64,000 nucleotides of DNA from Fimbriiglobus sp. (GTDB lineage Bacteria > Planctomycetota > Planctomycetia > Gemmatales > Gemmataceae), in NCBI GenBank assembly GCA_043745295.1, contig JAYTTN010000714.1, positions 19,500-83,499 on the forward strand, read 5' to 3'. The position numbers and the translations under genes were made by a program. Shown here piece after piece: positions 5,528 to 40,696 of the stretch; position 1 is the stretch's first letter; the number at the start of each line of letters is the position of its first letter. The notes under the pieces are model-generated. The model saw only the letters and a list, made by a program, of their open reading frames with translations, did no database searches and was not told the DNA's origin.

Positions 5528-5555
5528 TCACACCTCCAGAGAAAGGACTCTCGCC

Positions 5556-11963: not shown

Positions 11964-12118
11964 CCCGGTCCCGCCAGGGATCACTTTTCGACCTTGACCC
12001 CGACGACACACCTCTTGAATTGTCCACACCGCCCGCCACACCGGCACCGGCCGGCGCACCAGACCTGCCGCCGGCCGAACCGGCGGCGGGACCACCGACC
12101 ACCCCCGATGCCAACCGG

Positions 12119-19320: not shown

Positions 19321-21478
19321 CTGCGCCTCCCGCTACCACCTCATTTCCCCGCAACAGACGCAGCCCGTTGAAGACGACGAGCAGAGACGCCCCGGTGTCG
19401 GCGGCAATCGCGGCCCACAGGGACGAGTACCCTACGAACGTGAGGATCATGAACACTGCTTTTACGGCCAACGAGAACGCGACGTTTTGCCGGATCACCG
19501 ACAGTGTCCGACGGCTGTGACGGATCAGCCACGGCAGCTTGCCCAAGTCGTCCGACATGAGCGCCACATCCGCCGTCTCGATGGCCGCGTCCGTCCCCGC
19601 CGCCCCCATCGCCACGCCCAGGCTGGCCCGCGCCAGGGCGGGAGCGTCGTTTATCCCGTCGCCGACCATCGCCACGGAGCCGAACTCGGCGACCAGTGCC
19701 TCGACCGCCGCGACCTTCTCCTCGGGCAGCAGCCCGGCCCGCACGTCGTCTACCCCGGCGTCCTTGCCGACGGCCCGGGCCGTGGCCTCGTTGTCGCCCG
19801 TCAGCATCACGACCCGGACAACGCCGAGTTCCTTAAGTTCGCGGATCGCGTCCTTCGCCGCCGGGCGGACGGCGTCGGCCAGGGCGATCAGGCCGCAGAC
19901 GTGCATCGCGTTCCCGACCACGACGACTGACCGGCCCGCTGCGGCCATCGCCGCAATCCGCCCGTGAACGTCCTGCGTCTCCTGCCCTCGCTCGGTCAGA
20001 TAGCGGGGCGACCCCACCCAGAACTCTCGCCCCCTCCACCGCCCCACGGCACCCTTGCCCGGCAAGGCCCGGAGGTCTTCGGCGGTTGTGAGGGTGATCC
20101 CCTTCGAGGTGGCGTACTCGATGACGGCTCGCGCCAGCGGGTGTTCGCTCCGGGCCTCCAACCCGACAGCCCGTTCGAGCAGTTCCGCCTCGTCGTGTCC
20201 GTTGAGCGGCACGACCTCCACTACAATGGGGCGGCCCTCTGTTAACGTCCCCGTCTTGTCCAGGGCTACGGCCTTCAGCCGAGCCGGAAGCTCGATATAC
20301 ATTCCGCCTTTGACCAGCACGCCGTTGCGGGCGGCGGCGGTCAACGCGGCTACGATGCTCACCGGCGTCGAGATCACCAGGGCGCACGGGCAGGCGATGA
20401 CCAACATCACCAACGCCCGGTAGAGCCACTCCCACCACCCGCCGCCGAGCAGGGGCGGGACTACGGCCACGAACACCGCCAGGGCCATCACGGCCGGGGT
20501 GTAGAACGATGCGAACTGATCGACCCACCGCTCGGACGCCGCCCGCCGCGACTGCGACTCCCCGACCATGCGGATGATCCGGGCGAGGGTGGTGTCGTTC
20601 GCGGCCTTAGTGACCGTTACCTCCAGCACGCCCTCGCCGTTAACGGTGCCGGCGAACACGTCGTCTCCGGGCTGCTTCGGGGCCGGGACGCTCTCGCCGG
20701 TGATCGGGGCCTGGTTGACGTGACCGGCCCCCTTCTTGACCTTCCCGTCGAGGGGGATGCGTTCGCCGGGCCTCACGACGAACACCGCACCGATTGCTAC
20801 GGCTTTGACCGGGATACTGCGTTCGGGGCCGCTATCAGAAATCAGCCGGGCGGTCGGCGGGACGAGGTCGAGCAATGACGCGACCGCCCGGCGGACCCGC
20901 CCGACGCTCCACGCCTCCAACTCCAGCGACAGGGCGAACAGGAACGCGACCGTCGCGGCCTCGGCCCACTCGCCGATCACGACGGCACCGGCCACGGCCG
21001 CCACCATCAAGAGGTTCATGTCCGGCCGCAGCCGCTTGAGGGCGACCCACGCCTTCGGCAGCACCAGCCACAGCCCGGCGAGGATGGCCGCACCGTAGCC
21101 GACCTGGGCGGGGACGCCGGGCTTCTCGCCCCACCCGGCGGCGATGTGGAAGGCGACACCACCCAGAGCCGCCGAACCGCTCAAGGCGGTCAGGGTCGTT
21201 CGCCCCCATCTCGTCCAAAAGTTGCGTCCCTCTTCGGGGGCCTCATCTCCATGTCGGGACTCGGCCCGCATCCCCGTCCGGGCCACCGCTGCTATGATCC
21301 TGTCCGCAGTGACTTCTTCCAGGCCGGCGTTGACAGTCATGCGGGCGTTGATGAGATCACAGACGACGCGGTCCGCCCCTCCGACTATGGCCCCGACCTC
21401 CCGTTTCAGCGCCGCCACCTCCTCGGAGCAGTCCATACCCCGGATGGTGAATTCCTGCCTGGTTTTACTCATCTCCAT
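19310..21478 (-). CDS. zntA: Heavy-metal P1B-type ATPase (Zn/Cd/Pb class)
   Basis: CPC in ACPCALVISTP, DKTGTLT, GDGINDAP, and ADTGASLLVVFNGLRLL. The N-terminal HMA fold carries GMDCSEEV (CxxEE) instead of CxxC. Confidence 0.88.
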   Translation of the reverse strand: MEMSKTRQEFTIRGMDCSEEVAALKREVGAIVGGADRVVCDLINARMTVNAGLEEVTADRIIAAVARTGMRAESRHGDEAPEEGRNFWTRWGRTTLTALSGSAALGGVAFHIAAGWGEKPGVPAQVGYGAAILAGLWLVLPKAWVALKRLRPDMNLLMVAAVAGAVVIGEWAEAATVAFLFALSLELEAWSVGRVRRAVASLLDLVPPTARLISDSGPERSIPVKAVAIGAVFVVRPGERIPLDGKVKKGAGHVNQAPITGESVPAPKQPGDDVFAGTVNGEGVLEVTVTKAANDTTLARIIRMVGESQSRRAASERWVDQFASFYTPAVMALAVFVAVVPPLLGGGWWEWLYRALVMLVIACPCALVISTPVSIVAALTAAARNGVLVKGGMYIELPARLKAVALDKTGTLTEGRPIVVEVVPLNGHDEAELLERAVGLEARSEHPLARAVIEYATSKGITLTTAEDLRALPGKGAVGRWRGREFWVGSPRYLTERGQETQDVHGRIAAMAAAGRSVVVVGNAMHVCGLIALADAVRPAAKDAIRELKELGVVRVVMLTGDNEATARAVGKDAGVDDVRAGLLPEEKVAAVEALVAEFGSVAMVGDGINDAPALARASLGVAMGAAGTDAAIETADVALMSDDLGKLPWLIRHSRRTLSVIRQNVAFSLAVKAVFMILTFVGYSSLWAAIAADTGASLLVVFNGLRLLRGNEVVAGGADER

Positions 21479-21856: not shown

Positions 21857-23152
21857 CTACTCGACCATCCCCTCATCGCCGCGGGGCCCCTGGTCTGCCG
21901 GGGCCGGCCGGTTGAACAACCCGACTAGCGCAAAGTCCCACGCGCGGCGGCCGGTCCACAGAAGCGTCATGGCCGCTAGGACGAGGTAGACCCACGCCGC
22001 CTCGGTCAGCACCCGGACCGACCGGGCCTCGTCGGCCCGCAGCGCGAAGCTGACGGCCAACTGGCCGGCGAATAGGGAGAACAGGGCCACGGCACCGGCC
22101 GGCCCAAGACGTCGGCGCATGAGGACGGCGACGGCGAACGCAGACTGGGCCGCTGTCAGGAAGAACTCCTCCCGTTGGCGCTCGTCCAGAGGCAGGGCGG
22201 CCGGGTGACCCGCCGCCACCGAGTAGACGATCGGCAGCATGCCCACGAGGAGCGTCCACTGGTTGATCTTGTCGCTCGCCAGAACCCCCAGCCCGTTAGC
22301 CGGCCGGCCCCTCAAACAGTACAGGATTGCTACGACTACCGCTGGTGCCTCGCTGGCCAGCGGGGCCAACCACTGGATGAGCAGAAACTCGTCGATGCCC
22401 CACTCCCGGCCGACCCCGACTAGCGACTCGGCGAACGGCTCGGCGGCGGCCAGAATGACGGCGGCCGCGAACGTGATGAGTCCGGCGATCATTACGTACT
22501 GCCGGCCACGCGGCAGGCGGCCGATCGCCGCCGCCGGCCCGACAACTTCTTCCTCCACCGCCTCCGAGGTCCCGCTGACCCGCCACAGGTAGGCCGCGAA
22601 TATGCCCAGCAATACGAGCGCGTCAAACAGGGTGATTCGCCCCTTCAGGACGATTACGAACGAGTACAAGGTGGCCACGCCCAGGAACGCTACCTCGGCG
22701 GAGTTCTCCCACCGCAACGTGACGGCCCGCCGCCCCGTGCGGACCCAGCCGAGCAGGGCGACCAACGGCCAGGCCAGACCGATTAACAGGCGGTTGGCTC
22801 CGGTCATGTTGGCGGCCGCGTACTGGACGTATTTCGAGCCCGGGTTCAGACCGGCCTGGTACGTGTAGTAAACGTCCACCGCATACTCAGGCAACACCGT
22901 CACCAGGGCGAGCAGGGCGAGGGTCAGCCCAGGGGAGATGTGGGCCTCGGCGGCCTCGGCCGCCCAGGAAAGCAGGAACCCGGCCCCGAGCACCCCGAGG
23001 CCGAACAGCAGAGCCGCAGCCGGCGGCGGGAGCCCGGCCCCGGTCAGTCGCAGTGCGAGCGCTGGGAGCGTGGCCAACACCGCCAAGCCGTAGGGAACAG
23101 CCATCAGGCCTAGGGTGCCGACCGGAAGCCGGTCTCGGGGGATGTGGGGCAT
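21857..23152 (-). CDS. CaCA-like cation exchanger (Na+/Ca2+ exchanger membrane-region type)
   Basis: Polytopic membrane protein with two alpha-repeat-like motifs, TVLPEYAVD and PLASEAPAVVVA. Start is ATG 23152 (alternative 23233). Confidence 0.55.
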   Translation of the reverse strand: MPHIPRDRLPVGTLGLMAVPYGLAVLATLPALALRLTGAGLPPPAAALLFGLGVLGAGFLLSWAAEAAEAHISPGLTLALLALVTVLPEYAVDVYYTYQAGLNPGSKYVQYAAANMTGANRLLIGLAWPLVALLGWVRTGRRAVTLRWENSAEVAFLGVATLYSFVIVLKGRITLFDALVLLGIFAAYLWRVSGTSEAVEEEVVGPAAAIGRLPRGRQYVMIAGLITFAAAVILAAAEPFAESLVGVGREWGIDEFLLIQWLAPLASEAPAVVVAILYCLRGRPANGLGVLASDKINQWTLLVGMLPIVYSVAAGHPAALPLDERQREEFFLTAAQSAFAVAVLMRRRLGPAGAVALFSLFAGQLAVSFALRADEARSVRVLTEAAWVYLVLAAMTLLWTGRRAWDFALVGLFNRPAPADQGPRGDEGMVE

Positions 23153-23495
23153 CGGTCGTATTCCTCGGCTGGTCACGGGCTCCACCTTTGCTGGCCAGCC
23201 CCGCGTCTGGGCCGTCACTGACGGTTCACGCATGGCACAGCCGGAATTGCAAATTTAAAGCACAACCCGTAACATTGAAAATAACTTATGATTGGTAATT
23301 CTCTTTAAAGGCATTGGCCATATGTTTCTTGCAAACCTGATGCTCGCCTCAGGCGGGAACCGGGTGAACGTATTTAAGAGACCCTGACACAACCTCGGCA
23401 AACCCCTATTTTCAGGCACTTTCGGGGGCTGTGTCAGAGCCTTTAAGCAGCCGTTGGCGTTAATCGCCGGATCCGACCGTCGACAGCACATCGTC

Positions 23496-24893
23496 CTATC
23501 GAGGTGGGAGCGGGACGGACGGCAGGGGCCACTGGTCCTCCAGCATCAGCCCGGCAATCTCCGACGCCGCCCGCCACGCCTCCCCGAGCGACCGGAGGTA
23601 CTCCAGCCTCGCCTCGGCCACCGCACGCTGGGCTTGCAGCACCCGCAGGTACTCGAACTGCCCGCCCTGGAACGCCTTCAACGACAGTTGGTATGTCCGT
23701 TCGGCCTTCGGCAGGATCACGGACTTGTACTTCTCGGCTCGCTGCCGGGCGGCCGCGTAGGTGCCGAACGCCGTGGCCAGCCGCCCGACGAGGTCGTTCT
23801 GGACGCGGCCCACCTCGCTGACCGCCTCGCCGACCTGGGCCTTCGCCGCGAAGATGTTGCCCTGATTGCGATTCCACAGCGGCACCGGGATACTCGCCGC
23901 GATCACCCAGTCGTTCGACTTGTTCTGATTCTGGCGGACGTATCCGGTGCCAACCGTCACGTTCGGGATCGGCTCGACCGTGGCCCGCTTCAGCACCAGT
24001 TGCGCTCGTTCGACGCCGATCTGGGCCGACCGTAGGTCCGGGTGGACGCCGAGGACGTAGTTCCGCAGCCGCTCCAAGTCGTAGTCCGGCAGCGGGAGTT
24101 CGAGGTCGCCAGTAACTTTGGTGAACGGAAGGTCGTCCACGCCGACGCTTGCGGCCAGCCGGCGGAATGCGGCGGGTAACGATTTGGCGGTGGCGTCGAG
24201 TTCGGCCCGGTAGCGTTCCAGATCGACCTCCAGTTGCACCACGTCCAGTTCGCTGCCCTCTTTCGCCTTGAGAAGCTTGTTGGCGTTCTCGACGGACTGC
24301 TCGGCCAGGGTGATGAGTTGCCCCAGGATGTCGGCGCGGCGCTGGAGCGTGACCACCTCGTAGTAGTTTTGCCGCACTTCGGTGAAAAGCCGGTATCGCT
24401 CGGCCACCACCCGCAGCGTGGCCTGATCGACCTCCTTGAGGGCGGCGGCTTTAGACAGCCCCAGCTTGTTCCCCGTCACGATCTCCTGGCTGAAGTGCGG
24501 CGCAGTCCAGATTCCGCCCGGCCCGGTGCGGTCGCCGAGTTCATCGCCTGTGACGGAAAGGGTCGGGTTCGGGTACAGCCCAGCCTGGATTGCTCGGCCC
24601 CGCGCCGTCTCGACCGCCCACCCGACCTGGGCGAGCCGGGGGTTCCGTTCGAGCGTCAAGGCGGTCAGTAGCGGCAGCCCCAGCGGCGGGGGCGTCGATG
24701 ACCCCGTCGCGTCTGCATTCCCGCTGGGCGGTCTGGGGGCTGGCAACTTCCCGCCCTCCTTCCCACTCGCCGGGTCTTCCCGATACCCGGCCTGGACGAC
24801 GGCAAGGGCGGCGGGTCGTGGGGCAGCTGCAGTGGCCGCGACCGGATCGGGCGGACGTGTCACCGCACACCCGGCCAGTCCGGCGAGTGCCAC
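23496..24893 (-). CDS. Outer-membrane efflux factor (CzcC/TolC family); the 5' end appears frameshifted
   Basis: NPRLAQVGWAVETARGRAIQAGLYPNPTLS and a two-fold OEP repeat architecture. The lipobox LAGC sits only 8 residues after the GTG start. A better SD-ATG at 24925 is one nucleotide out of frame. Confidence 0.85.
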   Translation of the reverse strand: MALAGLAGCAVTRPPDPVAATAAAPRPAALAVVQAGYREDPASGKEGGKLPAPRPPSGNADATGSSTPPPLGLPLLTALTLERNPRLAQVGWAVETARGRAIQAGLYPNPTLSVTGDELGDRTGPGGIWTAPHFSQEIVTGNKLGLSKAAALKEVDQATLRVVAERYRLFTEVRQNYYEVVTLQRRADILGQLITLAEQSVENANKLLKAKEGSELDVVQLEVDLERYRAELDATAKSLPAAFRRLAASVGVDDLPFTKVTGDLELPLPDYDLERLRNYVLGVHPDLRSAQIGVERAQLVLKRATVEPIPNVTVGTGYVRQNQNKSNDWVIAASIPVPLWNRNQGNIFAAKAQVGEAVSEVGRVQNDLVGRLATAFGTYAAARQRAEKYKSVILPKAERTYQLSLKAFQGGQFEYLRVLQAQRAVAEARLEYLRSLGEAWRAASEIAGLMLEDQWPLPSVPLPPR

Positions 24894-25053
24894 CCGACCA
24901 GTAGCATCATGTAGTTCTTCGTCATGTCACTTGCCTCCGCGTCCTGCGTGTTTGGTTTGGCGATCCATCGCGGCCTAGCTCCGCAGCGAGCGGGTCGGCT
25001 CACGCCGGCAGCCTGGACGCGAACGGCCCAGGCTGCCAACTGACTACTCGGCA

Positions 25054-25377
25054 CTACTTGCAGCAGTTACCCGACTCGCAGCCGGCGGACGGCTTGCACG
25101 TCTTGGGCTTGGCCTCGACGGTCGGGAGGCAGCAGGACGGGTCGCAGCCCGTCTGGATGCAGCACCGGACGCACTCCTCGCAGCACCCGTCGATGGCGCA
25201 GCAGGCGGCGCACTCGGGGCAGCACCCGCTGCACTCGGGGCAGCAGTCCGCTACCTTGCAGCACGTCTGCTCGGCGGCGACCTGGGCCGGGGACTTCGTG
25301 AACCCGTCGGCGAGCGTGATCCCCGCCACGGACAGGACGGCGACCAGACAGAGGCCGCTGAACAACTTGAAACGCAT
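25054..25377 (-). CDS. Exported, extremely Cys-rich protein (metallothionein-like)
   Basis: Signal peptide MRFKLFSGLCLVAVLSVAGITLA, followed by 22 Cys including 8 CC doublets (CCPECSGCCPECAACCAIDGCCEECVRCC...). GGAG lies upstream. Confidence 0.7.
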   Translation of the reverse strand: MRFKLFSGLCLVAVLSVAGITLADGFTKSPAQVAAEQTCCKVADCCPECSGCCPECAACCAIDGCCEECVRCCIQTGCDPSCCLPTVEAKPKTCKPSAGCESGNCCK

Positions 25378-25462
25378 GATCTTTCTCCAGAACAGATGGT
25401 AAGGTTGGAAACGATGTCACGGGACTTCGGGGAGGCCGACTCGCCTCACGGACCCGTGTCCG

Positions 25463-25846
25463 TTAACACCGCCAAACGCAGTGGAGGATGCGATGCGGGG
25501 GCGACGGGACGGGGATAGCCAAATCGGGACGGAGCCACAGTCGTGGCGCGGCCCGGAAGGCGTCGGCGAAAGTGACGAACACGACCGGCCCAAGATCGAC
25601 TTCGGTGCTGACCGGCGGGGGGGGCTTGAGCCAGTCCAGTTCGTAACAACAGCACCGCTGTGGGAAGGTCGGCTCTGGCGTGACCGGCGACGGCTTCTCG
25701 CTGTCTTTACAGCCGCACAGTTCGCAGCAGCCGCCATGCTTGGCGGCGACCGGCGACCCGACGCGGACGGGACAAACGATGCGACACCAGCCCGGCGGTA
25801 AAGCCAGATTGACGCAGCACAGGATCGCCAAAAATCGAAGCGCCAT
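25463..25846 (-). CDS. Exported Cys-rich protein (CzcI/DUF2946-like?)
   Basis: Hydrophobic N-terminus, GGCCELCGC and RCCCY motifs, and a Pro-rich C-terminus ending HCVWRC. Confidence 0.5.
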   Translation of the reverse strand: MALRFLAILCCVNLALPPGWCRIVCPVRVGSPVAAKHGGCCELCGCKDSEKPSPVTPEPTFPQRCCCYELDWLKPPPPVSTEVDLGPVVFVTFADAFRAAPRLWLRPDLAIPVPSPPHRILHCVWRC

Positions 25847-26037
25847 ACCGAAGCCTCATTTCGCCGGGCAGATTAAGCCAGCGCCGCCGACGAATACCGC
25901 GTCATCCCGGCGGACCCTTTTGGGTCCATACCCCATGTGAATCTTCACCCCGCCCCACCGGCACCGGGAGAGGCGGGACTGACGACACTGTTTCTTTCCT
26001 GCCGGACACACAACATCGTCACCCCGAGCGGGTCAGG

Positions 26038-26376
26038 TCACGTCTTCGGCTTGGCGGTGAAGCTCCCGCCCGGCCCTTCGAGCTTGGTCGGCTCGTAGCC
26101 AGCCTTATCGACCGCCTCCCACAGCGACCGGGGCGACATCACGGCCCCCTGCTTGGGCGTCACGATGAGCAGCTTGGCCTTGATGTCCACCTTCACCTCG
26201 CCCACGCCCGGCACGGCGTACAGCTTGTCGCCGGCCTTCTTCGCGCACGACATGCAGTCCAGGCCGGGGACGGTCAGCTTGGTCGGCACCGGGTCGGCTG
26301 GCGGCTGCCCGCTTACGAAGGCCGGAACGCTCACCGCCGCGAGCGCGACCACCAGAAATCGGTTCAACATCCGCAT
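26038..26376 (-). CDS. Exported HMA-domain metallochaperone
   Basis: ATG at 26376 follows AAGGAG. Signal peptide MRMLNRFLVVALAAVSVPAFVSG. The HMA motif is LTVPGLDCMSCAKKAGDKL. Confidence 0.75.
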   Translation of the reverse strand: MRMLNRFLVVALAAVSVPAFVSGQPPADPVPTKLTVPGLDCMSCAKKAGDKLYAVPGVGEVKVDIKAKLLIVTPKQGAVMSPRSLWEAVDKAGYEPTKLEGPGGSFTAKPKT

Positions 26377-26475
26377 TTCGGACTCCTTCCAGAAGAATCG
26401 ACACATCTCCTCGATGTCTCGCAATGATGTTCCCAGACCGGCCCCGCCGCCCGCTCCGCGAGGCGGGCCGGTTGA

Positions 26476-26685
26476 CTATTTCGCCTCGCCCGTCGCTTCG
26501 GACGGAGGCGTCGGAGGGCGTCTCGACACCTCCCGGCAGGCCGGGGCGACCACCCCCGCCGGACCATCACGGGCCGACGCCACCCCGCACCCGCACAGAC
26601 ACCCGCCCTGCATCGGCAGCAGCAGCCCCATCACCACAAGGGCGACCCGCCGCGAACTCGGACTCCGTGGGACCGGCAGCTTCAT
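26476..26685 (-). CDS. Possible small exported Cys-containing protein
   Basis: MKLPVPRSPSSRRVALVVMGLLLPMQGGCLCGCG... with GAGGAA upstream. It fills an otherwise empty gap in the operon. Weak call. Confidence 0.3.
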   Translation of the reverse strand: MKLPVPRSPSSRRVALVVMGLLLPMQGGCLCGCGVASARDGPAGVVAPACREVSRRPPTPPSEATGEAK

Positions 26686-26771
26686 GGTGTTCCTCTGGTT
26701 GACCGCCTGGCCGTTGGGGACGAGTTCGGACCCTCGCCCCCTTCACACAGGCCGGGCCGCGTGGCGGCGGC

Positions 26772-27176
26772 CTACTTCTTCTCGCCCTTCGCCTCGGGCG
26801 GCAGGGCCGGCGGCTCCTTGCCGTACTTGGCCTTGTAGGCGGCGGCGAACTTCTCGGCCCGCTTCGGGTTACAGATGAAGCACTGCGACTCGGGCCGTTC
26901 GTGTTCCTTGCACCAGTCGCCCTTCTTCTTGTACTCGGCGGCGACCTTCGCATCGCACTGAGCGCAGTCGTGTTCGGGGACGCCGTGCTCCTTGCACCAC
27001 CAGCCGTCGGCGGCGTCCTTCTTCTCGCCGTCCTTCTTCTTCTCGGCCACCGCCTTCGGGTCGTCCTTCGGCCCCTCGGCCTTGTCCTTCTGGCCGCACC
27101 CGCTGAGGGCGAGCAGGGCCAGGGCGGGGAACAGGAAGGCGGTCAGCACCGCCGCTCGCAACGTCGTCGTCTTCAT
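26772..27176 (-). CDS. Lipoprotein with two WCxEHxxPExxCxxC motifs
   Basis: Lipobox LLALSGC. The motifs are WWCKEHGVPEHDCAQCD and DWCKEHERPESQCFICNP. The linkers are Lys-rich. Confidence 0.75.
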   Translation of the reverse strand: MKTTTLRAAVLTAFLFPALALLALSGCGQKDKAEGPKDDPKAVAEKKKDGEKKDAADGWWCKEHGVPEHDCAQCDAKVAAEYKKKGDWCKEHERPESQCFICNPKRAEKFAAAYKAKYGKEPPALPPEAKGEKK

Positions 27177-27211
27177 CGAGGTCTCCTCTCGTTTGGGATA
27201 ACACCGAACCG

Positions 27212-30200
27212 TTACACCGGGGCCGGCTCTTCACGATGAGTCGCCGCCCCCGCCACCGGAGCCACTTTGCCCCGGAACGCCTCGAACGCTTGGTACAGCA
27301 CCCGAAGCACCAACAGCGACATCACCATCGCGCCGATCACGCCGCCGATCACCACCGTGGCCAGTGGGCGCTGCACCTCGGCCCCCATGCCCGTCGAGAA
27401 CGCCATAGGGACGAACCCCAGGCAGGCCACCAGCGTCGTCATCAGCACGGGCCGTAGCCGGGTGAGTGCGGCCTGCTCGATGGCGTCGGTCAGGGCTACC
27501 CCCCGGTCCCGCAGTTGGCGGACGTAGGAGACGAGGATCATGTCGTCGAGGACCGCCACGCCCGACAGGGCGATGAACCCGATGCCGGCACTGATCGAGA
27601 ACGGCATGTCCCGCAGCCACAGGGCGAAGATGCCGCCGACCCAGGCGAACGGGATGCCCGTGAACACCCGGCAGGCGTCCAGCAGGTTCCCGTAGGTGGC
27701 GTACAGCAGGCCGAAGATCAGCACGAACGCCACCGGCACGACGATCATCAGCCGCAGGCTGGCACGCTCCAGTTGCTCGAACTGCCCGCCCCAAGTGATC
27801 GAGTACCGGCCCGACGGGAGTTGCACCCGCTCGGCCGTCTTCCGCCGGGCCTCGGCCACAAAGCTGCCGAGGTCGCGGCCCCGCACGTTGCAGGTGACGG
27901 TGATCCGCCGCTGGCCCCACTCCCGCTGGATCGTGGACGGCCCCTCCACCACCTGCACGTCGGCCAGCCGGGACAGCGGAATGCGGCCCCCGCTCGGTGT
28001 GGTGACCAGCATGTTGCCGATGGCCTCCGGGCTGGCCCGGTCCCGGTCCGGCAGCCGCACCGCCAGCGGGAACCGCACCTGCCCCTCGACCACCTCGCCG
28101 AGCGGCTTCGCTCCGATGGACTCAACCAGATCGAGGACGGCCTGGGCCGGCACCCCGTGGCGGGCGATCTCGTCCTGCTTGATCTTCACCTGGAGGACCG
28201 GCTGGCCGGTCACCTGCTCGACGTTGATGTCCGCGCTGCCCTGGACCGACTTCAGTACCGCCTCGACCTCCCTGGCCTTCGCCACCAGCACGGCGAAGTC
28301 GTCGCCGTAAATCTTCACCCCCACGTCAGACTTGACCCCCGAAATCATCTCGTTCAGCCTCATCTCGATCGGCTGGGTCATGGCATTTCGCTGGCCGGGC
28401 ATGTCCCGCACCGCCTTCTCGATCAACTCCGTCAACTCGGCCTGGGTGCGGGCCTTCGTCCACTTCTGTCGCGGCTTGAGGGTGATGAACACGTCGGTCA
28501 ACTCCACCCCCATCGGGTCGGTCGCCACCTCGGCGGTGCCGGCCCGGCTCCAGACGTGTTCGACCTCGTCGGGGAACGCGGCGAGTATCGCCTTCTCCAT
28601 CTTCGTGTTGGCCCGGACGGACTCCTCCAGGTCGGTCCCGGCCAGCCGCACGACGTTGATGCAGATGGCCCCCTCCGACAGCCGGGGGATGAACTCGGAC
28701 CCGAGCCGAGGGGCGATCATCCCGAAGGCGACCATCAGGACCGTCAGGGCGAACCCGACCACCGCCAGCTTGTGGTGCATCGAGAAGTGCATGACCGGGC
28801 GGTACAGGGCCAGGGCCAGCCGCATCAGGAGCGGCTCCCGCTCGGCGACCTTCTTGGGGAGCAGCAGGCTGGCCAGGACCGGCATCAGCGTCATCGACAG
28901 GATCATCGAGCCGACCAGGGCGAAGATGACGGTCATGGCCATCGGGCGGAACAGCTTTCCCTCGGTCCCCTCCAGCGTCAGGATCGGCAGGTAGACGATC
29001 ATGATGATGAGTTCGCCGAAGAGGGTCGGCTTGCGGACCTCCAGGGCGGCGTCCCGGATGACGGCGAGCTTCCCCCGCTTCTCGGCCTCGCCGTGGCTCA
29101 GGTGGCGGATGCAGTTCTCGACCATCACCACGCTGGAGTCCACCACCATGCCGAAGTCGATGGCTCCGAGGGACAGCAGGCTGGCCGCGACCCCCCACTG
29201 GAGCATCCCGCTGAAGGCGAACAGCATCGACAGCGGGATGGCGAGCGCGACGATCCCCGCCGCCCGCAGGTTGCCCAGGAAGGCGAACAGGACCGCGACG
29301 ACGAACAGCCCGCCCTCGAACAGGTTGTTGCGGACGGTGTGGATGACGTGATCGACCAGTTCCGTCCGGTCGTACACCGGCTCGACCTTCACGTTCGGCG
29401 GCAGGGACGCCTTCACCTCGTCGAGCTTCCGCTTCATCCCCCACGTCACTTCGTGGGTGTTCTCGCCCATCGTCAGGAACCCGAGGCCCAGCACGACCTC
29501 GCCCCTGCCGTCTAGGGTGACCGCCCCCCGCCGGACCTCGTAGCCGACCTCCACGTCGGCCACGTCCCGCACCCGCACGGGCACGCCGTCCTGGGCGGTG
29601 ACAACGATGGCCCCGATCTGCTCGACGTTCGCCGTCCGCCCGACGCCGTGGACGAGCAGCATGTTGCCGCCCTGACTGACACTACCGCCGCCGACGTTGC
29701 GGTTGTTCTTCTGGACGGCCTCGGTCACCTGCTCGAAAGTCAGCCCGTACTTGTGCAAGCGGGCCGGGTCGATGCGGACCTGGTACTGCTTGTCGTACCC
29801 GCCCCAAGTGTTGACCTCGGCGGTGCCGGGGACGGTCCGCATCTTGGGCCGCACCACCCAGTCGTGGACGGTGCGGAGGCTGGTGACATCGTCGCCCTGA
29901 CCGGTCACGACGTAGTGGAACACCTCGCCCAGCCCGGTGGACACCGGCCCCATCTTCGGCCGCTCGACGCCCGCCGGCAGTTGGGCGGTTCCCAACCGTT
30001 CGTTCACGACGGTCCGGGCGAAGTAGATGTCGGTCCCCTCCTCGAAGGTGACCACCACCTGCGACAGCCCGAACTTCGAGATCGACCGGAGCGTCTGAAT
30101 CTTCGGCAGCCCGGAGAGCGCCTGCTCGATCGGGAAGGTGATCTGCGTCTCCACCTCCTCCGGGCCGAGGGCCGGGACGATGGTGTTGATCTGCACCTGC

Positions 30201-30334
30201 ACCGGAGTGGTGTCGGGGAAGGCGTCCACGTCGAGCCGCCGCATCGACAGCACCCCGAAGGCGGCGAACGCCACCGCGGCCAGGATGACCAGCAGCCGGT
30301 TCCGCAGCGAGAAGTCGATGATCCACGTCAGCAC
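27212..30334 (-). CDS. czcA: HME-RND inner-membrane pump (CzcA/CusA family)
   Basis: 1040 aa. The N-terminus reads DVDAFPDTTPVQVQINT...GLSQVVVTFEEGTDIYFARTVVNERL, typical of CzcA. Confidence 0.92.
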   Translation of the reverse strand: MLTWIIDFSLRNRLLVILAAVAFAAFGVLSMRRLDVDAFPDTTPVQVQINTIVPALGPEEVETQITFPIEQALSGLPKIQTLRSISKFGLSQVVVTFEEGTDIYFARTVVNERLGTAQLPAGVERPKMGPVSTGLGEVFHYVVTGQGDDVTSLRTVHDWVVRPKMRTVPGTAEVNTWGGYDKQYQVRIDPARLHKYGLTFEQVTEAVQKNNRNVGGGSVSQGGNMLLVHGVGRTANVEQIGAIVVTAQDGVPVRVRDVADVEVGYEVRRGAVTLDGRGEVVLGLGFLTMGENTHEVTWGMKRKLDEVKASLPPNVKVEPVYDRTELVDHVIHTVRNNLFEGGLFVVAVLFAFLGNLRAAGIVALAIPLSMLFAFSGMLQWGVAASLLSLGAIDFGMVVDSSVVMVENCIRHLSHGEAEKRGKLAVIRDAALEVRKPTLFGELIIMIVYLPILTLEGTEGKLFRPMAMTVIFALVGSMILSMTLMPVLASLLLPKKVAEREPLLMRLALALYRPVMHFSMHHKLAVVGFALTVLMVAFGMIAPRLGSEFIPRLSEGAICINVVRLAGTDLEESVRANTKMEKAILAAFPDEVEHVWSRAGTAEVATDPMGVELTDVFITLKPRQKWTKARTQAELTELIEKAVRDMPGQRNAMTQPIEMRLNEMISGVKSDVGVKIYGDDFAVLVAKAREVEAVLKSVQGSADINVEQVTGQPVLQVKIKQDEIARHGVPAQAVLDLVESIGAKPLGEVVEGQVRFPLAVRLPDRDRASPEAIGNMLVTTPSGGRIPLSRLADVQVVEGPSTIQREWGQRRITVTCNVRGRDLGSFVAEARRKTAERVQLPSGRYSITWGGQFEQLERASLRLMIVVPVAFVLIFGLLYATYGNLLDACRVFTGIPFAWVGGIFALWLRDMPFSISAGIGFIALSGVAVLDDMILVSYVRQLRDRGVALTDAIEQAALTRLRPVLMTTLVACLGFVPMAFSTGMGAEVQRPLATVVIGGVIGAMVMSLLVLRVLYQAFEAFRGKVAPVAGAATHREEPAPV

Positions 30335-30374
30335 GGCAGCACCCCCTTACAGCGGGGGCGTCGGTTCGGGCCTG

Positions 30375-32003
30375 TTACTTGCCGCATGTGCAGCCCTCCC
30401 CCAGGTTGTTCTTGAGGAGTTCGGCCCGCAGGGCGGTGCTGCCCTTGGTCACGACCAGTTCGCCCGGCACCACGCCCGCGATGATCTCGGTGTTCTTGCC
30501 GTCCTTGGCCCCGACCCTAACGGTGCGGACGTGGAACACCTTGGGGCTGCCGTCCTTCAGGTAGTCCTTGTCCCGCACGAAGACGACGTGGCAGCACCCC
30601 TCCCACTGGACGGCCTCGGTCGGCACCACGACGGCCTCCTTCTCCTCCCGCAAGACGACCTGACCGGCCCCGAACGTGTTGGCCCGCAGTCGGCCCGCCG
30701 GGTTCTCGACGGCGGCCCGTAGCTTGATCGTGCGGGTCTTCGGGTCGGCCTCGGTGCTGACCCAGGTGATCTTGCCGCGGGTTTCGGCCCCGGCGTCCGG
30801 TTGGAAACGTACTTCCTGGCCGAGGGCGACGAGCTTGGCGTCTTCCAGGCGCAGGTCGAGCGTTACCCACATCCGCCGGGCGTCGGCCACGGTGAACAGC
30901 AGCTTGGCGATGTCCACGACTTCGCCGGCCACCACGTCCCGCGATGTGACCACGCCGTCCATCGGGGCGACCAGGGGCAGCAGGTTCGTCGTCGCCGTTC
31001 GTGCGTCGAGTGCCTTCGCCACGTCCTCGGGGATGGCGAGGAACCGGACCTTCGCCTCCAGTTGCGCCGACGTGAGCTTCTGGAGGTCGGCCTCGTCCAG
31101 AGGCAGCCCGTAGTTGACGAGCGTCTGGCGGGCGGCGTGGAGCCGAATCTCGCCCTCGCGGACGGCGGCTTCGGACTCGCGGACGCGGGCTTCGGGGACG
31201 GCCCCGGCGGAACTGCGGACGCTGGCCACGACCTGAGTCTTCAGTTGGAGCGAGGCGAACGCCTGGAGCAACTCGGTCTTGGCCTTGCCCACCTCGGCGG
31301 CGTCGATCAGGGCCAGCACGTCGCCAGCCTTGACCGCGTCGCCCTGCTGCTTGAAGACCCTCCAGACGCTGCCGGGCAGGCGCGCCGAGAGTCGGGTGAT
31401 GCGGGTCTGGTCGTAGCCGACCTCGCCGTTGCCGGCGACGGCCTCGGTGACGGGGGCCGTCCATACCGGCTCGACCTCGATCCCCACCTTGTCGGCGGCT
31501 TCCTTCGAGACGAACTGGATTCGCCGCCGGTGCATCTGGCACTTGCGGTTGTTCTCGGGCCGGTCGGTGAACGCCACCGCCCGCTCGGCCTTGGCGAAGT
31601 CGGCCTTCGTGGGGACCGGCGGGGTCGCCGTCTGGGCGACCTCGGGGTGGCACAGCGGGCATTCGTGGACGCCGAACGGCTTGCACCAGCCTACCGGGGC
31701 GAGCTTCGGCATCAGGTCGGTGTCGCACTCCACGCACACGGACTCGGGGACGCCGTGTTCGGCGCACCAGTCTTCCTTGCCCGGGGGTGCTTCGCCGTTC
31801 AGAGCCGAGAACTTCGGCAGGGTCCAGTCGTGCTGGTAGCCCCAGTAGGCGACCCCGGCCAGCACGGCGAACGTGACGACGGCGGGGATCGCGCCCAGGA
31901 CGGCACCGACGAGTTTCCCGACCGCCGACCGGTGGAGCGTGCGGGTGTGTGACGGCGGGTCCGCCGCCACCTGCGGCGGGCGTTCGAGTACGGTGTCGAG
32001 CAT
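30375..32003 (-). CDS. Membrane-fusion (periplasmic adaptor) protein with an N-terminal Cys/His metal-site extension
   Basis: TM anchor, then DWCAEHGVPESVCVECD and GWCKPFGVHECPLCHPEV (nt 31638-31772), then a HlyD/CzcB-type barrel and lipoyl core. Confidence 0.85.
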   Translation of the reverse strand: MLDTVLERPPQVAADPPSHTRTLHRSAVGKLVGAVLGAIPAVVTFAVLAGVAYWGYQHDWTLPKFSALNGEAPPGKEDWCAEHGVPESVCVECDTDLMPKLAPVGWCKPFGVHECPLCHPEVAQTATPPVPTKADFAKAERAVAFTDRPENNRKCQMHRRRIQFVSKEAADKVGIEVEPVWTAPVTEAVAGNGEVGYDQTRITRLSARLPGSVWRVFKQQGDAVKAGDVLALIDAAEVGKAKTELLQAFASLQLKTQVVASVRSSAGAVPEARVRESEAAVREGEIRLHAARQTLVNYGLPLDEADLQKLTSAQLEAKVRFLAIPEDVAKALDARTATTNLLPLVAPMDGVVTSRDVVAGEVVDIAKLLFTVADARRMWVTLDLRLEDAKLVALGQEVRFQPDAGAETRGKITWVSTEADPKTRTIKLRAAVENPAGRLRANTFGAGQVVLREEKEAVVVPTEAVQWEGCCHVVFVRDKDYLKDGSPKVFHVRTVRVGAKDGKNTEIIAGVVPGELVVTKGSTALRAELLKNNLGEGCTCGK

Positions 32004-32127
32004 GATCTTCGTCTCCGGCGTGTGAGAATGCCGACACGCCCTCGGCGGGGTGCCTGCGGGAGCAATGACGAACGAACGGGTTTACCTAGGACGTGAAGAC
32101 ATCACGCCCGGTCGCGGTAGAAGTGAG

Positions 32128-32673
32128 TTAGCAGCGGAGGACGGTGCAGGAGATGGCGAGCAGGTGGCCGGACGGGGGCGGGAGGGGCAGCAAGGCTACG
32201 GCGTGCCGCGACGGCGTGAATCCGCCGAACACGGAGTCCGCAGCGGCGGGCAGCAGTTGATCGAGGACGTGCCGGTCGTCAACCGAGGTGCGTTCGGCCG
32301 CCGGCTGTGGGCCGTCCTGGGCGACGACAAGCGGGATGTGCTTGCACTGGCACGGCTGCCCGTGCGCGATCACTGGATCGGAGTCGGCGGGGGGAGCCTG
32401 GGTAGACGCGGCGTCAGACGGGTCGTCGCTTGCGCGGCGGCACGAACACCGCTTCTCGGACGCGCAGACCTGCCGGCCGCTGCCGTCAACCGCCCCGCGA
32501 GGTTGGACACCCTGATCGGGGACGCCTTCGTCCTGGCAACAGGTGCAAGTCGTCCAGAATGCGTCGATGCACACGCGGCCCTTCGGGCTGATGCAGAGCG
32601 AGAACGCCGGGCCGGCGATCGTCGCCGTGGCCTGCGTTAGCAGTAGCATCAGGGAAAGGATTCGCCGCGTCAC
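32128..32673 (-). CDS. Exported Cys-rich protein at the head of the operon (CzcI/DUF2946-like?)
   Basis: Signal peptide MTRRILSLMLLLTQATATIAG. Motifs CISPKGRVC, CTCC and CQC. Pro-rich C-terminus ending SCTVLRC. Confidence 0.5.
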   Translation of the reverse strand: MTRRILSLMLLLTQATATIAGPAFSLCISPKGRVCIDAFWTTCTCCQDEGVPDQGVQPRGAVDGSGRQVCASEKRCSCRRASDDPSDAASTQAPPADSDPVIAHGQPCQCKHIPLVVAQDGPQPAAERTSVDDRHVLDQLLPAAADSVFGGFTPSRHAVALLPLPPPSGHLLAISCTVLRC

Positions 32674-33139: not shown

Positions 33140-33871
33140 TTACTTGCCGGTCTTCCGTCGGCTCGAAGCTTTCCGCTTCGGCTTACCCGCCACCGGCGGC
33201 GGGTCCGGCCGCAGCGGCGAGTTCGGGTCGCCGGCCATGAAGAGGTGGTGGATCAACATCGGGTCGGTGCGCGTGCTTCGCGCATGGCACGTTTCTCTGA
33301 CCCTGGGATCGGTCGGCCGAACGGTCGAGGTCAAAAAGGCTCCGGGGGCCGGCATCCCGAGGTCGCCGTACATCCCGCGGATGTTCTCTTCGACGCCCGC
33401 GATCGCCCCGGGCACGTCGCCGTTCAGCACGAAGGCGAGCATCCCGCCGAACCGCACCGAGTTGGCGTACTGCCCGCGGACGAACCGGAGCATGCCGAAC
33501 CGGACGTACTCGACGAAGTACGGGCGGGGCGTTCCGCCGGCGTGGTCCCGCACGTTGATCCGCTTGCACTCCAGGCAGAAGTAGATGTCCTCGCGCGGGA
33601 CGGGCGGCGAGAACACGATGTCCATCCGCCCCTGGTCCTGCCCCGCGGCCGGGTCGAGTTCGACCAACTGCGTGTCGATGCGGAACGGCAGGTTGCGGCT
33701 GTTGCGGGACTGGCGGAGCGCGCGGCACAGGGCCTCGGACACCGGGTCTTCGCGGTCGTTGCCGGCGGGGGCCGGCATCGCCTCCCAGGTCGCCACCACG
33801 AGGTCGAGGATGTCAGGCACCTGGGACTCGATGAAACCGACCCACTCGTCGGGCGATCCGAAGTGCGTCAT
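33140..33871 (-). CDS. PD-(D/E)xK-type nuclease-fold protein
   Basis: GRMDIVFSPP ... IYFCLECKRI gives the D ... ExK arrangement after an acidic helix. The start overlaps the methyltransferase stop (ATGA). The C-terminal tail is basic. Confidence 0.6.
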   Translation of the reverse strand: MTHFGSPDEWVGFIESQVPDILDLVVATWEAMPAPAGNDREDPVSEALCRALRQSRNSRNLPFRIDTQLVELDPAAGQDQGRMDIVFSPPVPREDIYFCLECKRINVRDHAGGTPRPYFVEYVRFGMLRFVRGQYANSVRFGGMLAFVLNGDVPGAIAGVEENIRGMYGDLGMPAPGAFLTSTVRPTDPRVRETCHARSTRTDPMLIHHLFMAGDPNSPLRPDPPPVAGKPKRKASSRRKTGK

Positions 33872-36800
33872 GCGCCCCCCTTTGGGGAACGCATGAGGAT
33901 GGTGCCGGCGATCTCGTCGGCGTCGTTCATCGCCGCCGTCTGCGTCCAGAACCGCTGCCCGATCGGCTTGACCACATAAAGCCGGTTGCTGTCGAACACC
34001 ATGACCCCGCGGACCACGTCAAGCGTGGCAGATTTGCGCGGGATCGCCTTCCGGACGGCATCGAGTATCTGGACCAGACTCCTTCCGGCGTCGGGCATCG
34101 TCTCGTTGACGCGGGAGCGATCTACCTTCTCAAGCACCGTCACCCCGACGCCGAGTAACCCCGACCCGTGGACCTGACCGCGAACCGCGAACGGGCCGCC
34201 CTTGGCCCAGCCGTTCAGCATCTCGCACACCCGGTCGCGGTAGGCTTCCTGCTGCGCGGCCGTGGCGGGAGTCAGGGTCGGCACGACCTTCTGCGCGCGG
34301 GTCGGCCGGGTGCTGTCGATGACGACCCGGACCGTGTCTTCGATCAAGCTTTTTTCGAGCGGGATGATGTCGAAGTATTCTTCGATGAGCGGCTCGATCT
34401 TCGCGCTGGCGGCCCGGACGACGCCGGCCCGGTCCACGAAATCCGCGTCCGCACTACGGGCCGCGTCATCGACGATCTTCGCCACGTCGCGGACGATCTG
34501 CCGGCTGCGTTTCGGGTCGGGCTGTTGCTCGGGCAGCGGGAACGGCAGCCGCATGATCTCCTCGACGTGGACCTCCTGCCGGCTGATGCCCCAGTTCGAC
34601 GAGGTGTGGAACAGAAAGTAGCGGGCCAGTGGGGTGCGGAGGTAGGCCGCCAGGAACATCAACAGTTCTCTGTCACCGCTGGGGCCGGACACGCCTCTTA
34701 GCGCGTGCTGGAACGATACGTCGAAGTCGGCGTAGGCGATGCTGCTAAACCCCTTCGACACGATGACGTGCGGCCCGCGGAAGATGTCCGTATTCTGGAT
34801 CAGCCGCCGCACATCGACATCGGACGCCTGCCGCGTCTGGCAGTCCCGTTCGAGCAGGATGAGTTCCAGGGCGGCGGAAGTCGCAGGAATAAACTTCCTG
34901 CCGGGCAGCTTTAGTCGCTTGCGCGAGGCTTCGGGGTCGTTCTCCCCGAACGGCTGGAACCCCTCGGCCATGAGCCAGGGCTTGGCGCTCACCCGTTCCC
35001 GCGGCTGGCGGACCACGTCCCGCAGTCGGGGGTAAAGCGTCAGACGGTCCAGCAACCGCCAATCTCTCGGCGTCGCCCAGAACCGCTGCTTCCAAAGCTG
35101 GGGCGCGTCCGGGCCGTCGAGGTCCTGGAGCAGTGCCCCGACCGTCAGCGAAGTTCGGTCCTGCGGGGCGATGGTGATGACCTCCGCCTTCGTCACCGTC
35201 CAGTCGGCCTTCGGCCCCCAATACTCGATGCGGTGCGCGGTGTCGGCCGGGGGCGGTTGGCGGTAGCTCACGACGAGCGCGGGGTGGCCGGCCTTCTCGA
35301 ACAGGAAGCGTTGGAAGTCGGCCAGGTTCAGGACGCGGTCGATGGCGTGCGCGCGGACCCACGCCTTCTGGAACGGCAGGGCGGTCGAGCTGTGGTTGAA
35401 GAGGACGCCGTGCGGCAGCACGAAACACACCCGCCCGGCGGCGGAGACGTGTTCGGCCGCCTTCCAGATGAACGCGGCGGCGATCTGCTTGTCCGGCAGC
35501 GGCCGCGCGTGGGTCGCACACCATTGGCCCGCCGGCGTGTCGCCGGTGGCGATGCTGCCCCACGGCGGGTTGCCGATGACGAGTGAGACATCCTTGGGGA
35601 ACCAGCCGTCGGCGGCGAAGAAGTCGGCTTCGCGGATGTTGCCCTGGCCCTGGTCGGCGTGTGGTTCGTCCTGCGGGACCACCAGTCGGGGCAGTGCCCG
35701 GCCCCGCTCCTGGAGCGCCTGGATGTCGGGCGGGGTGAGCTGGTCGAGATAGGCGAGGTAGAGGCTGAACGCAGTGATCCGGCACGCCGTCAGGCTGACA
35801 TCGACGCCGAACAGGCTTTCCTGGAGCAGCCGCATCAGCTCCTTCGCCTTACGGTCGTTGCGGGCGGTCGGGTTCGCCTGCTTCCACTCCTCCGCGATCC
35901 GGTTGAACAGGCCGACGAGGAAAATCCCCGACCCGCAGGCCGGATCGAAGAACCGCTTCCCGAGCAGGGTTTCGGTGCCGTCCAGTGCCGTGTCGAGGAC
36001 GACCTCGGCCAAGAACCGGGGCGTATAGAACGCGCCCTTCTGCTCCTCCGAGGCGGTCAGGAACCGCTCGTAGATGGCGCTGATGGTCTCGATGGGGATG
36101 AATTTGAAGTCGTAGAGCTGGAACAGCACCCCCTGCCCGCCGCCGACGCTCATGCCCTGGAAGAACTCGTCCAGCGTGCGAATGTGTTGGTCATGGATTA
36201 GCTCCTTTTCCGCCGCCAGGTCGTTGCTGAACAGGTCGCCGTTGAAGTCCTCCTTCAGCTTCTCGAACAGGCGATACAGCCCGTCCTTGGCCGCGGCCGG
36301 CGACGGGTTGCCGAGCAGCCCGCGCAGGTCGGCCGCCCCGCGGACACCCAGGTCGGACAGGTAGCGGTCGCCGATGACCTCGCGGTCGAACAGGTAGCAG
36401 GTGAACACGAGTCGGCAGAGCAGCGCATTGAGGACGGGCGCGGGGATGCGCTTGCGGGTCGCGGCGTCGAGCCTGTCCCGGGTGAGTTGCAGGTTGTCGA
36501 GCAGGTGCCGGTCTACCCGCTGCTTCGGGTCGAACGACCGCTTGTGCCGGTGGAAGAACTCCCCGGATTCGATGGCGACGACGAACTCTTTCAGACCCTC
36601 GGCCACCCGCGCCAGGCTGTCCACCAGGCTGGGCGGTGCCGTCGCAGCGACCGTGGCCGGCTCGGGGCGGGTCATGCCCGAGTAGACGTGAACGCGGTCG
36701 TCCGTCACCAGGATGAGGAGCGACGCGCCGCCGTGGTTCCAGAACTGCCGGTGGAGTTCGGCGACGGCCTCCGGGGTGATCCGCTTGACGAGCTTGAAGT

Positions 36801-38295: not shown

Positions 38296-38392
38296 TCCGC
38301 CGCTAGCGGCGTTCGTGGCAAGCTCCCTCGCTAACCGAGGCGCGGGCCACTGCAATTCCCCATCCAGCAACATCACCTTTGTGAGTCAAAAT

Positions 38393-40691: not shown

Positions 40692-40696
40692 ACGGG

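Follow-up and report, generated by a model that had tools for sequence, protein, structure and literature searches.

A Planctomycete Heavy-Metal Efflux Operon with a Probable Metal-Binding Lipoprotein Partner Paralogous to a Domain of Its Adaptor

The DNA considered here, a stretch of 64,000 nucleotides from Fimbriiglobus sp. (assembly GCA_043745295.1, contig JAYTTN010000714.1, positions 19,500-83,499 of the forward strand, referred to below as the window and numbered from its own first nucleotide), carries an operon for a tripartite efflux system of the heavy-metal efflux resistance-nodulation-division (HME-RND) type. An initial annotation had read nine open reading frames (ORFs) in the order Cys-rich exported protein (ORF 1), adaptor, pump, lipoprotein (ORF 4), short peptide (ORF 5), exported protein with an HMA domain (ORF 6), a second Cys-rich exported protein (ORF 7), CC-doublet protein (ORF 8) and outer-membrane factor. 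All nine are present on the minus strand, in this order and at the coordinates first assigned to them, family scans confirm the HME-RND character of the operon, and the number of small exported Cys-rich partners is indeed unusual for an operon of this class. We have compared the window with 80 loci around relatives of the pump, nearly all of them from Planctomycetota and with metagenome-assembled genomes of the Gemmataceae as the closest, onto which all window proteins were mapped; a set of Logan contigs, L081-L084, stands outside the 80. The nine genes do not emerge from this comparison as the single conserved module that they had seemed to be, but as three layers. A core of leader protein (of which ORF 1 is one type), Cys/His-containing adaptor, ZneA/CzcA-like pump and lipoprotein is general to the pump clade; ORF 5, the HMA protein and the outer-membrane factor are lineage-specific additions, while ORFs 7 and 8 constitute an inserted cassette.

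Chance ORFs are common in the window because its GC content is ∼67%, and overlapping ORFs are numerous, so that each small ORF has been tested separately. In the claimed frames the GC content at third codon positions is 0.94 for ORF 4, 0.92 for the HMA gene, 0.95 for ORF 8, 0.84 for ORF 1, 0.80 for ORF 5 and 0.76 for ORF 7. Ratios of nonsynonymous to synonymous substitution rates (dN/dS), obtained with the Nei-Gojobori method for window ORFs against relatives, are 0.19-0.37 for ORF 5, 0.20-0.24 for ORF 7 and 0.29-0.52 for ORF 1, and those of ORF 4 lie between 0.15 and 0.27 relative to L001-L004, yet reach 0.78 relative to L081. The five small ORFs (1, 4, 5, 7 and 8) are thus real genes, each on the strength of its codon bias, of purifying selection or of homologues in which it is conserved. 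Each of them, as well as the HMA gene, is preceded by a Shine-Dalgarno-like sequence, and the encoded proteins start with a basic segment followed by a hydrophobic stretch, in agreement with the export signals and ribosome-binding sites reported initially. The five small proteins and the HMA protein together contain 61 Cys (12, 7, 4, 2, 13 and 23).

Searches of Pfam and NCBIfam with ORFs 1, 4, 5, 7 and 8 return no family at E ≤ 0.1, save for the signal peptide of ORF 4 that resembles LptM models at a level below their cutoffs, and in the same libraries none of the five matches CusF, CzcI, CzcE or another named small periplasmic metal protein. Profile searches with the ORF 4 and ORF 1 families produce no sequence match in the PDB at E ≤ 1, ORFs 5, 7 and 8 lying outside this search. 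The literature searched contains no description of the module, of which the initial annotation had known none either, and none of a periplasmic metallothionein. The proposed absence of a linked regulator is likewise upheld in that the scans run between 18.7 and 33 kb match no regulator family, with not every small ORF there scanned. Terminator-like sites are not more common than in shuffled sequences, and promoter-like matches are found away from the starts of the operon.

The inner-membrane pump (27212-30334, minus strand, 1040 aa) is a ZneA/CzcA-like HME-RND protein that matches the CusA/CzcA family TIGR00914 over residues 1-1018 with 1216.6 bits (cutoff 701.45). Its closest relative of solved structure is ZneA (4k0e, E = 6e-205), with CusA second (E = 4e-187). 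The sequence of the fourth transmembrane helix (TM4), aiDFGmvvDssvvmvEN, fits the divalent pattern DFG-x3-D-x2-x3-V-E-N that is found in ZneA, whereas CusA has A-V-G there. Further, D606, D614 and E662 of the pump align to D602, E610 and D658 of ZneA, which we take to be metal ligands, and the Met triad of CusA, M573, M623 and M672, aligns to N560, L612 and E662, so that the Met signature of a CusA-type Cu(I)/Ag(I) pump is missing. The TM4 motif, along with periplasmic sites built from carboxylates and not from Met, places the pump in the divalent (Czc/Zne-type) subgroup of HME-RND proteins. ARAGORN reports a tRNA-Arg (ACG) at 27398-27487, inside the conserved pump coding region, that is almost certainly a false positive.

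Linked to the operon is a gene for a P1B-2 (Zn/Cd/Pb-type) P-type ATPase (19310-21478, minus strand) that has a CPC motif and, at its N-terminus, an HMA-like domain with GMDC. The ATPase scores 506.1 bits against TIGR01512, the model for Cd-type P1B-2 enzymes (cutoff 313.5), and stays below the exception-level ZntA model (490.6 against 1240). Because the pump signatures and the linked ATPase both carry Zn/Cd/Pb features, a divalent substrate is indicated, and our best guess, by analogy of motifs, is that the pumped metal is Zn, Cd or Pb; a Cus-like role in transport of Cu(I) or Ag(I) is unlikely. The "thiophilic metal" of the initial annotation is in this sense loosely right, but what the pump and ATPase signatures suggest is a divalent ion, with the Met triad of CusA absent.

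The adaptor (30375-32003, minus strand, 542 aa) is a periplasmic membrane fusion protein (MFP) that matches HlyD_D23 (E = 1e-37) and the RND_mfp model TIGR01730 (127.8 bits, cutoff 94.9) but falls below the CzcB/NccB subfamily model TIGR00999 (120.8 bits, cutoff 319.3). Its closest solved relative is ZneB (3lnn), ahead of CusB. An N-terminal transmembrane helix is directly followed by a tandem Cys/His domain at residues ∼79-124, WCxEHxVPExxCxEC / WCxxxGVxECxxCHPE, then by the MFP body and a C-terminal GEGCTCGK tail. The tandem C-x2-H-x6-C-x2-C arrangement at the adaptor N-terminus is found at every one of the 54 loci where it can be assessed. The C-terminal region of the adaptor (30375-30420 and ∼30560-30600) contains, in addition to the GEGCTCGK tail, a membrane-proximal WEGCCH motif, and adaptors of relatives have similar tails (GEGCACH, GAGCGCEH, GEGCCGNH plus a His-rich run) with one conserved Cys.

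ORF 4 (26772-27176, minus strand) encodes a lipoprotein of 134 aa with the lipobox LSGC and two C-x2-H-x6-C-x2-C modules. Among the 71 loci with at least 700 nt of sequence downstream of the pump gene, 63 have an ORF 4 gene there, mostly within 350 nt. A large protein database yields 598 matches to ORF 4, none of which has a Pfam domain and which are annotated as "hypothetical", "RND transporter" or, wrongly, "membrane fusion protein". Residues C61, E63, H64, E68, C71, C74, C89 and C99 are invariant, and many homologues have linkers rich in His and Asp. The ORF 4 family and the N-domain of the adaptor are homologous, with an hhalign probability of 98.7% (E = 2e-16) and tblastn E values between 1e-6 and 3e-8, and the lipoprotein is a free-standing paralogue of the adaptor N-terminal domain. 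AlphaFold2 predicts a confident and compact core for ORF 4 (block means of the predicted local distance difference test, pLDDT, of 89-96 for residues 61-120), and a Foldseek search of the PDB with this model finds no fold relative, the best E value being 5.8. At seven loci (L011, L015, L019, L048, L050, L060 and L071) a homologue of the Zn/Cd ATPase gene starts ∼10-110 nt past the lipoprotein match.

The operon opens with ORF 1 (32128-32673, minus strand), a leader gene encoding a Cys-rich exported protein of 181 aa with 12 Cys and 5 His. Hallmarks of the family are an N-terminal hydrophobic segment, a C-x-C-x-H motif and a C-terminal ...VLRC. In 52 of 54 loci the adaptor gene is immediately preceded by a small ORF of 112-190 aa that has a hydrophobic N-terminus and at least 5 Cys. 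The ORF 1 family forms one sub-class among these leaders: its hidden Markov model (HMM) matches the ORF next upstream of the adaptor in L081 and at 27 of the 80 loci. All 29 database homologues of ORF 1 are named hypothetical, and a scan across the family gives no Pfam match. We have considered whether ORF 1 and ORF 7 are paralogues. A joint alignment is suggestive, with a common C-terminal ...C...RC, and hhalign nevertheless assigns the pair a probability of 0.1-0.5% (E = 0.11-0.48), so that paralogy was rejected. The ORF 7 HMM does give six sub-threshold matches (E = 2e-4 to 0.03 over 19,182 ORFs), every one to a leader ORF upstream of an adaptor and all in loci of Pirellulales type, and the two classes are tied by operon position and these weak matches only.

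The remaining genes of the operon are of more restricted distribution. ORF 5 (26476-26685, minus strand), which had been listed as a "possible CLCGCG peptide", is a conserved gene for a small lipoprotein-like protein of 69 aa with the motif GGC-L-C-G-C-G; it is limited to the closest relatives (L001-L004 and L081-L084), differs among them by in-frame indels and is included in the gene calls for the Logan contigs. The exported HMA-domain protein (26038-26376, minus strand, 112 aa, with a signal peptide) matches PF00403 at E = 1e-11 (45.2 bits, cutoff 24.8) and has the CxxC site GLDCMSC, whose Asp, like that of GMDC in the ATPase, is presumably typical of ZntA-type sites. Its scores remain below the equivalog cutoffs for MerP (32.1 against 92.55) and CopZ_AFE_1862 (37.6 against 85). 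Of the 80 loci, 8 have the HMA gene downstream of the lipoprotein gene on the same strand, as do L081-L084, and the seven loci named above, where an ATPase gene takes that position, are others than these 8.

The last gene of the nine codes for an OEP/TolC-like outer-membrane factor, itself a lipoprotein, with two stretches that match OEP (PF02321, E = 6e-35, 121.2 bits) above the cutoff. The identity given initially is correct; the boundaries 23496-24893 are not, since the gene extends to 24925 on the minus strand, where the true start, an ATG behind GGAGG, opens a frame encoding MTKNYMMLLVG. Relative to L003, L004 and L081 the window lacks one G of a G-run at ∼24893-24896, and this 1-nt deletion, whether genuine or introduced in assembly, parts the start codon and first residues from the remainder of the lipoprotein signal peptide. 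In L004 there is a separate deletion of 4 nt nearby and its outer-membrane factor is truncated. An outer-membrane factor is present near the pump in only ∼20 loci.

ORFs 7 and 8 occupy a variable slot, at 24972-26042, that is located by blastn against L003 and L004, whose pumps are 94-97% identical to that of the window. Homology ends at 26043-26046, after the HMA gene, and returns at 24971-24980, upstream of the outer-membrane factor, and the skipped 1.07 kb contain both ORFs. The cassette is absent in L002, L003 and L004, three of the closest relatives. In its place L003 and L004 have a segment of ∼345 bp with another small gene, in L004 for an unrelated 83-aa membrane protein, and L002 has a different Cys-containing ORF of 150 aa; the gene order of L081-L084 is exactly that of the window. 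ORF 7 (25463-25846, minus strand) is a Cys/Pro-rich protein of 127 aa with 13 Cys that belongs to the 'LALPPGWC...PPHRILHCVWRC' family, for which an exhaustive phmmer search gives 77 representative clusters and a family-wide scan no Pfam match. Members of the family are recognised by LALPPGWC close to the N-terminus, by clusters of the CC and CCC type and by PPLHVLHCVW(R/L)C at the C-terminal end. The confidence of the AlphaFold2 model is confined to an N-terminal helix, and the gene is called on Logan contigs. ORF 8 (25054-25377, minus strand) is an exported CC-doublet protein of 107 aa, in which ∼84 mature residues include 22 Cys (∼26%), mostly as CC doublets, and no His. The composition is metallothionein-like and the likeness is one of composition alone, there being no match to a metallothionein or to any other Pfam or NCBIfam family. 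A core, CCPECxACCAIDGCCEECxxCCIxxGC, is invariant in seven database homologues and L087.

Wherever the DNA downstream can be read, an ORF 7-family gene is followed by one for an exported CC-doublet protein. This is the case in the window and L081-L084 and also in L085 (with ArgZ-type genes), L087 (with cytochrome P460), L089 (after a two-component system) and L090, and in these last four no efflux genes are called near the pair. The partner in L085 and L087 is a clear homologue of ORF 8, and in L089 and L090 the architecture alone is kept. Since ORF 7 and its CC-doublet partner recur in four other contexts, the pair travels independently and was inserted in this operon. A direct repeat of 37 nt with 73% identity flanks the cassette (24987-25023 and 26025-26061; 10-nt exact core GACCCGCTCG, minus strand). 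It was rejected as an insertion scar, since L081, which carries the cassette, lacks the exact core at the corresponding positions, and the repeat possibly reflects chance. An inverted repeat just past the stop of ORF 8 (25007-25037, minus strand) would form a stem-loop with a perfect 10-bp stem, and has no T-run. The antisense strand of CC-doublet genes is open as well, with equal third-position GC (25058-25402, plus strand, in the window; 6594-6878, minus, in L087; 769-993, minus, in L090). Public gene calls on L087 and L090 have taken the antisense ORF, so that the true Cys-rich gene is missing from those annotations.

Past the outer-membrane factor the operon continues with a gene for a membrane protein of the Na_Ca_ex family (21857-23233, minus strand, PF01699, E = 3e-23) and then with that for the P1B-2 ATPase. 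The Na_Ca_ex-family gene adjoins the outer-membrane factor in L004 too, and its product may serve as one more cation transporter on the apparent integrated genomic island (window 1-46400) where the operon sits. Also located there are a RepA-type initiator (9024-10064), a helicase-type protein of 1892 aa (11465-17143), a type IIG restriction-modification enzyme (33868-36984), a second HME-RND system with an IhpB-like adaptor and without small accessories (38315-43942) and a tyrosine recombinase (44928-46364). Between 44 and 46 kb the GC content falls to 0.58, and housekeeping genes (ribosomal-protein, pth, ssb) start at 46.6 kb. A 196-aa methyltransferase (18730-19320) overlaps the end of the ATPase gene, and in L081, on contigs with the gene order of the window, a 234-aa class-I S-adenosylmethionine-dependent methyltransferase (2497-3201) lies between adaptor and pump; we do not consider these two to be counterparts, as they share generic class-I similarity only (35% identity over 106 aa). 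Close relatives also encode a divergent Cus-like adaptor that contains the motif YFCPMHP, and two further small Cys-rich ORFs are found between it and the operon (5068-5691, minus strand, and 5792-6295, plus strand, in L004; 5634-6242 in L002). These follow the same design in that they combine CC/CCC clusters with an N-terminus that is hydrophobic and with ...PPPDLIITHCHFTC or ...LSRLTC at the C-terminus. In planctomycetes, several kinds of metal pump thus seem to have small Cys-rich proteins beside them.

We consider it probable that the locus is a Planctomycetota-type tripartite HME-RND operon for the efflux of divalent metal, equipped with a metal-binding lipoprotein partner and with lineage-specific additions. 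The lipoprotein is a copy of an adaptor domain that is conserved together with the pump, and a metal-binding periplasmic partner is therefore the most economical reading of it. The lipoprotein would bind metal in the periplasm and would dock on, or exchange metal with, the homologous N-domain of the adaptor, and this docking or exchange would in turn feed the pump or switch it on. The analogues are CusF, which acts in this way on the CusB N-terminus, and the Atx1-like chaperones, which do so on homologous domains of P-type ATPases. The cassette of ORF 7 and the metallothionein-like ORF 8 would probably add to the buffering of metal in the periplasm. Such a relay is suggested by the gene order and by the homology of lipoprotein and adaptor domain, from which we infer metal binding, transfer and buffering by the small proteins; what the data themselves show is that the genes are real and conserved, which of them are homologous and to which class the pump belongs. 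A number of observations weigh against this proposal. The invariant Cys3His site resembles structural zinc more than a labile transfer site, and the invariant Cys could serve to hold structural zinc or to form disulfides, in which case the transport ligands would be the invariant Glu and His, or there would be none. Periplasmic cysteines are often oxidised, and the "dozens of thiolates" of the initial annotation, correct as a count of Cys, are chemically unproven because they presume reduced residues. The dN/dS of ORF 8 is ∼1, so that there is no purifying selection outside its Cys core, and the efflux link of the cassette is weak in view of its unrelated neighbors elsewhere (cytochrome P460, two-component system, ArgZ). 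The outer-membrane factor is apparently frameshifted, and the choice of metal is based on motif analogies and on residue roles taken in part from the literature.

The most serious competing account is that the Cys/His modules are structural zinc ribbons or disulfide knots, with the lipoprotein an assembly or tethering subunit that handles no substrate metal and that could, for example, pair with the adaptor N-domain and so anchor the complex to the membrane. The C,H,C,C pattern of each module is invariant and tetrahedral in style, the AlphaFold2 model of the lipoprotein consists of short hairpins and then helices as in a small zinc finger, paralogy with the adaptor domain suits heterodimerisation and the conservation of the gene at 63 of 71 loci is as tight as that of a structural partner; yet the His/Asp-rich linkers of many homologues are typical of metal capture, an invariant Glu and His stand beside the Cys, the gene abuts a Zn/Cd ATPase gene and not other pump parts in several loci, and neither sequence nor fold searches of the PDB have produced a structural template for the lipoprotein. 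We regard this account as possible, if doubtful. Somewhat harder to accept is a more far-reaching version of the relay, peculiar to planctomycetes and based on Cys, unlike the Met/His chemistry known from Proteobacteria, in which leader and lipoprotein together would pass Zn, Cd or Pb to the adaptor domain and thereby into the pump, the lipoprotein being the first divalent CusF-like chaperone and ORFs 7 and 8 the first exported bacterial metallothionein and its membrane partner; we judge this unlikely. ORFs 7 and 8, and possibly ORF 1, might instead be Cys/Pro-rich envelope or redox proteins that were inserted by chance and have no part in metal handling, and to this we give similarly little credence. 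Cys-rich proteins are present in planctomycete cell walls (PMC8567305), the cassette is missing from L002-L004 and recurs among unrelated genes, ORF 7 is largely unstructured by AlphaFold2 and the dN/dS of ORF 8 fits as well, but the Cys density of ORF 8 is metallothionein-like, leaders of the ORF 1 type go with the operon at 52 of 54 loci, the six weak matches of the ORF 7 HMM all fall on leaders upstream of adaptors and ORFs 1, 7 and 8 have no match in Pfam and hence none to a YTV-type model, if Pfam holds one.

It is improbable that the system is a Cys-based counterpart of Cus and exports a soft monovalent or mercury-type metal, Cu(I), Ag(I) or Hg(II), to which the word "thiophilic" in the initial annotation would point. 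The richness in Cys of the periplasmic parts, the weak MerP/CopZ-likeness of the HMA protein and the rank of CusA as second-best solved relative of the pump are all compatible with this possibility; set against them are the N, L and E at the positions of the CusA Met triad, the divalent DFG...D...EN of TM4 that is shared with ZneA, the Zn/Cd/Pb type of the linked ATPase and the Asp in GLDCMSC, which we assume to be of ZntA type. Finally, it is hardly credible that some of the small ORFs are merely open by chance in a GC-rich genome. The many overlapping ORFs and the intermediate third-position GC of ORFs 5 and 7 might be so understood, but the low dN/dS of these same two ORFs, the in-frame indels of ORF 5, the 77 clusters of ORF 7 and the calling of both as genes on independent contigs might not.

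Comparison with described systems is most direct for ZneCAB and CzcCBA of Cupriavidus metallidurans, which are likewise tripartite, with ZneA and ZneB the best solved relatives, the same TM4 motif and aligned acidic residues. The gene order differs, adaptor and pump here being followed by the accessory genes with the outer-membrane factor last, and the adaptor has a transmembrane anchor together with the tandem Cys/His N-domain that ZneB lacks. The conserved lipoprotein and leader are extra, and homologues of CzcI, CzcE, CzcD and CzcRS were not detected. CusCFBA offers a parallel in that CusF, too, is a small periplasmic partner encoded within an HME-RND operon and the proposed target is the N-terminus of the adaptor. 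CusF is an OB-fold protein that binds Cu(I) through Met, His and Trp and that is not homologous to CusB, whereas the lipoprotein here is homologous to its adaptor, relies on Cys, His and Glu and belongs to a system of the divalent type. A free chaperone with the fold and motif of a domain of its own transporter is known from Atx1 and CopZ and the HMA domains of P1B-ATPases, and ORF 6 is a true HMA domain that is exported, as MerP is. ORF 6 scores below the MerP and CopZ cutoffs, and the module shared by lipoprotein and adaptor does not have the HMA fold of Atx1, CopZ and MerP and matches nothing in Pfam or the PDB.

For ORF 8 the obvious references are the bacterial metallothioneins SmtA/BmtA and MymT, which it resembles in Cys density and in CC/CxxC spacing but not by any sequence match, and from which it differs in its Sec-type signal peptide, its lack of His and its constant pairing with the ORF 7 family. 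The copper-storage protein Csp1 is exported, as is ORF 8; it is a four-helix bundle with a Cys pattern unlike that of ORF 8. Exported, Cys- (and Pro-) rich and planctomycete-restricted proteins have been described in Planctomycetales in the form of the YTV cell-wall proteins (PMC8567305). ORFs 1, 7 and 8 are far smaller than these and have no Pfam match, and genes of the ORF 1 type are tied to efflux operons.

While the class of the pump is ordinary, the pairing of the lipoprotein with a domain of the adaptor, the near-universal leader and the cassette of ORF 7 and a CC-doublet protein appear to be new. At least three real and recurrent families without names come to light in this manner, the lipoprotein, the Cys-rich leader proteins and the ORF 7/CC-doublet pair, and for the last of these it matters to annotation that gene callers at times take the antisense strand. 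The heavy use of Cys by exported proteins of metal systems raises the question of the redox state of the planctomycete periplasm. How divalent HME-RND pumps, CzcCBA and ZneCAB among them, obtain their metal is less well understood than it is in the case of Cus, and we know of no description of a CusF-type partner in these systems. As a conserved duplicate of the N-domain of the adaptor, the lipoprotein is a concrete candidate for such a partner of divalent HME-RND pumps.

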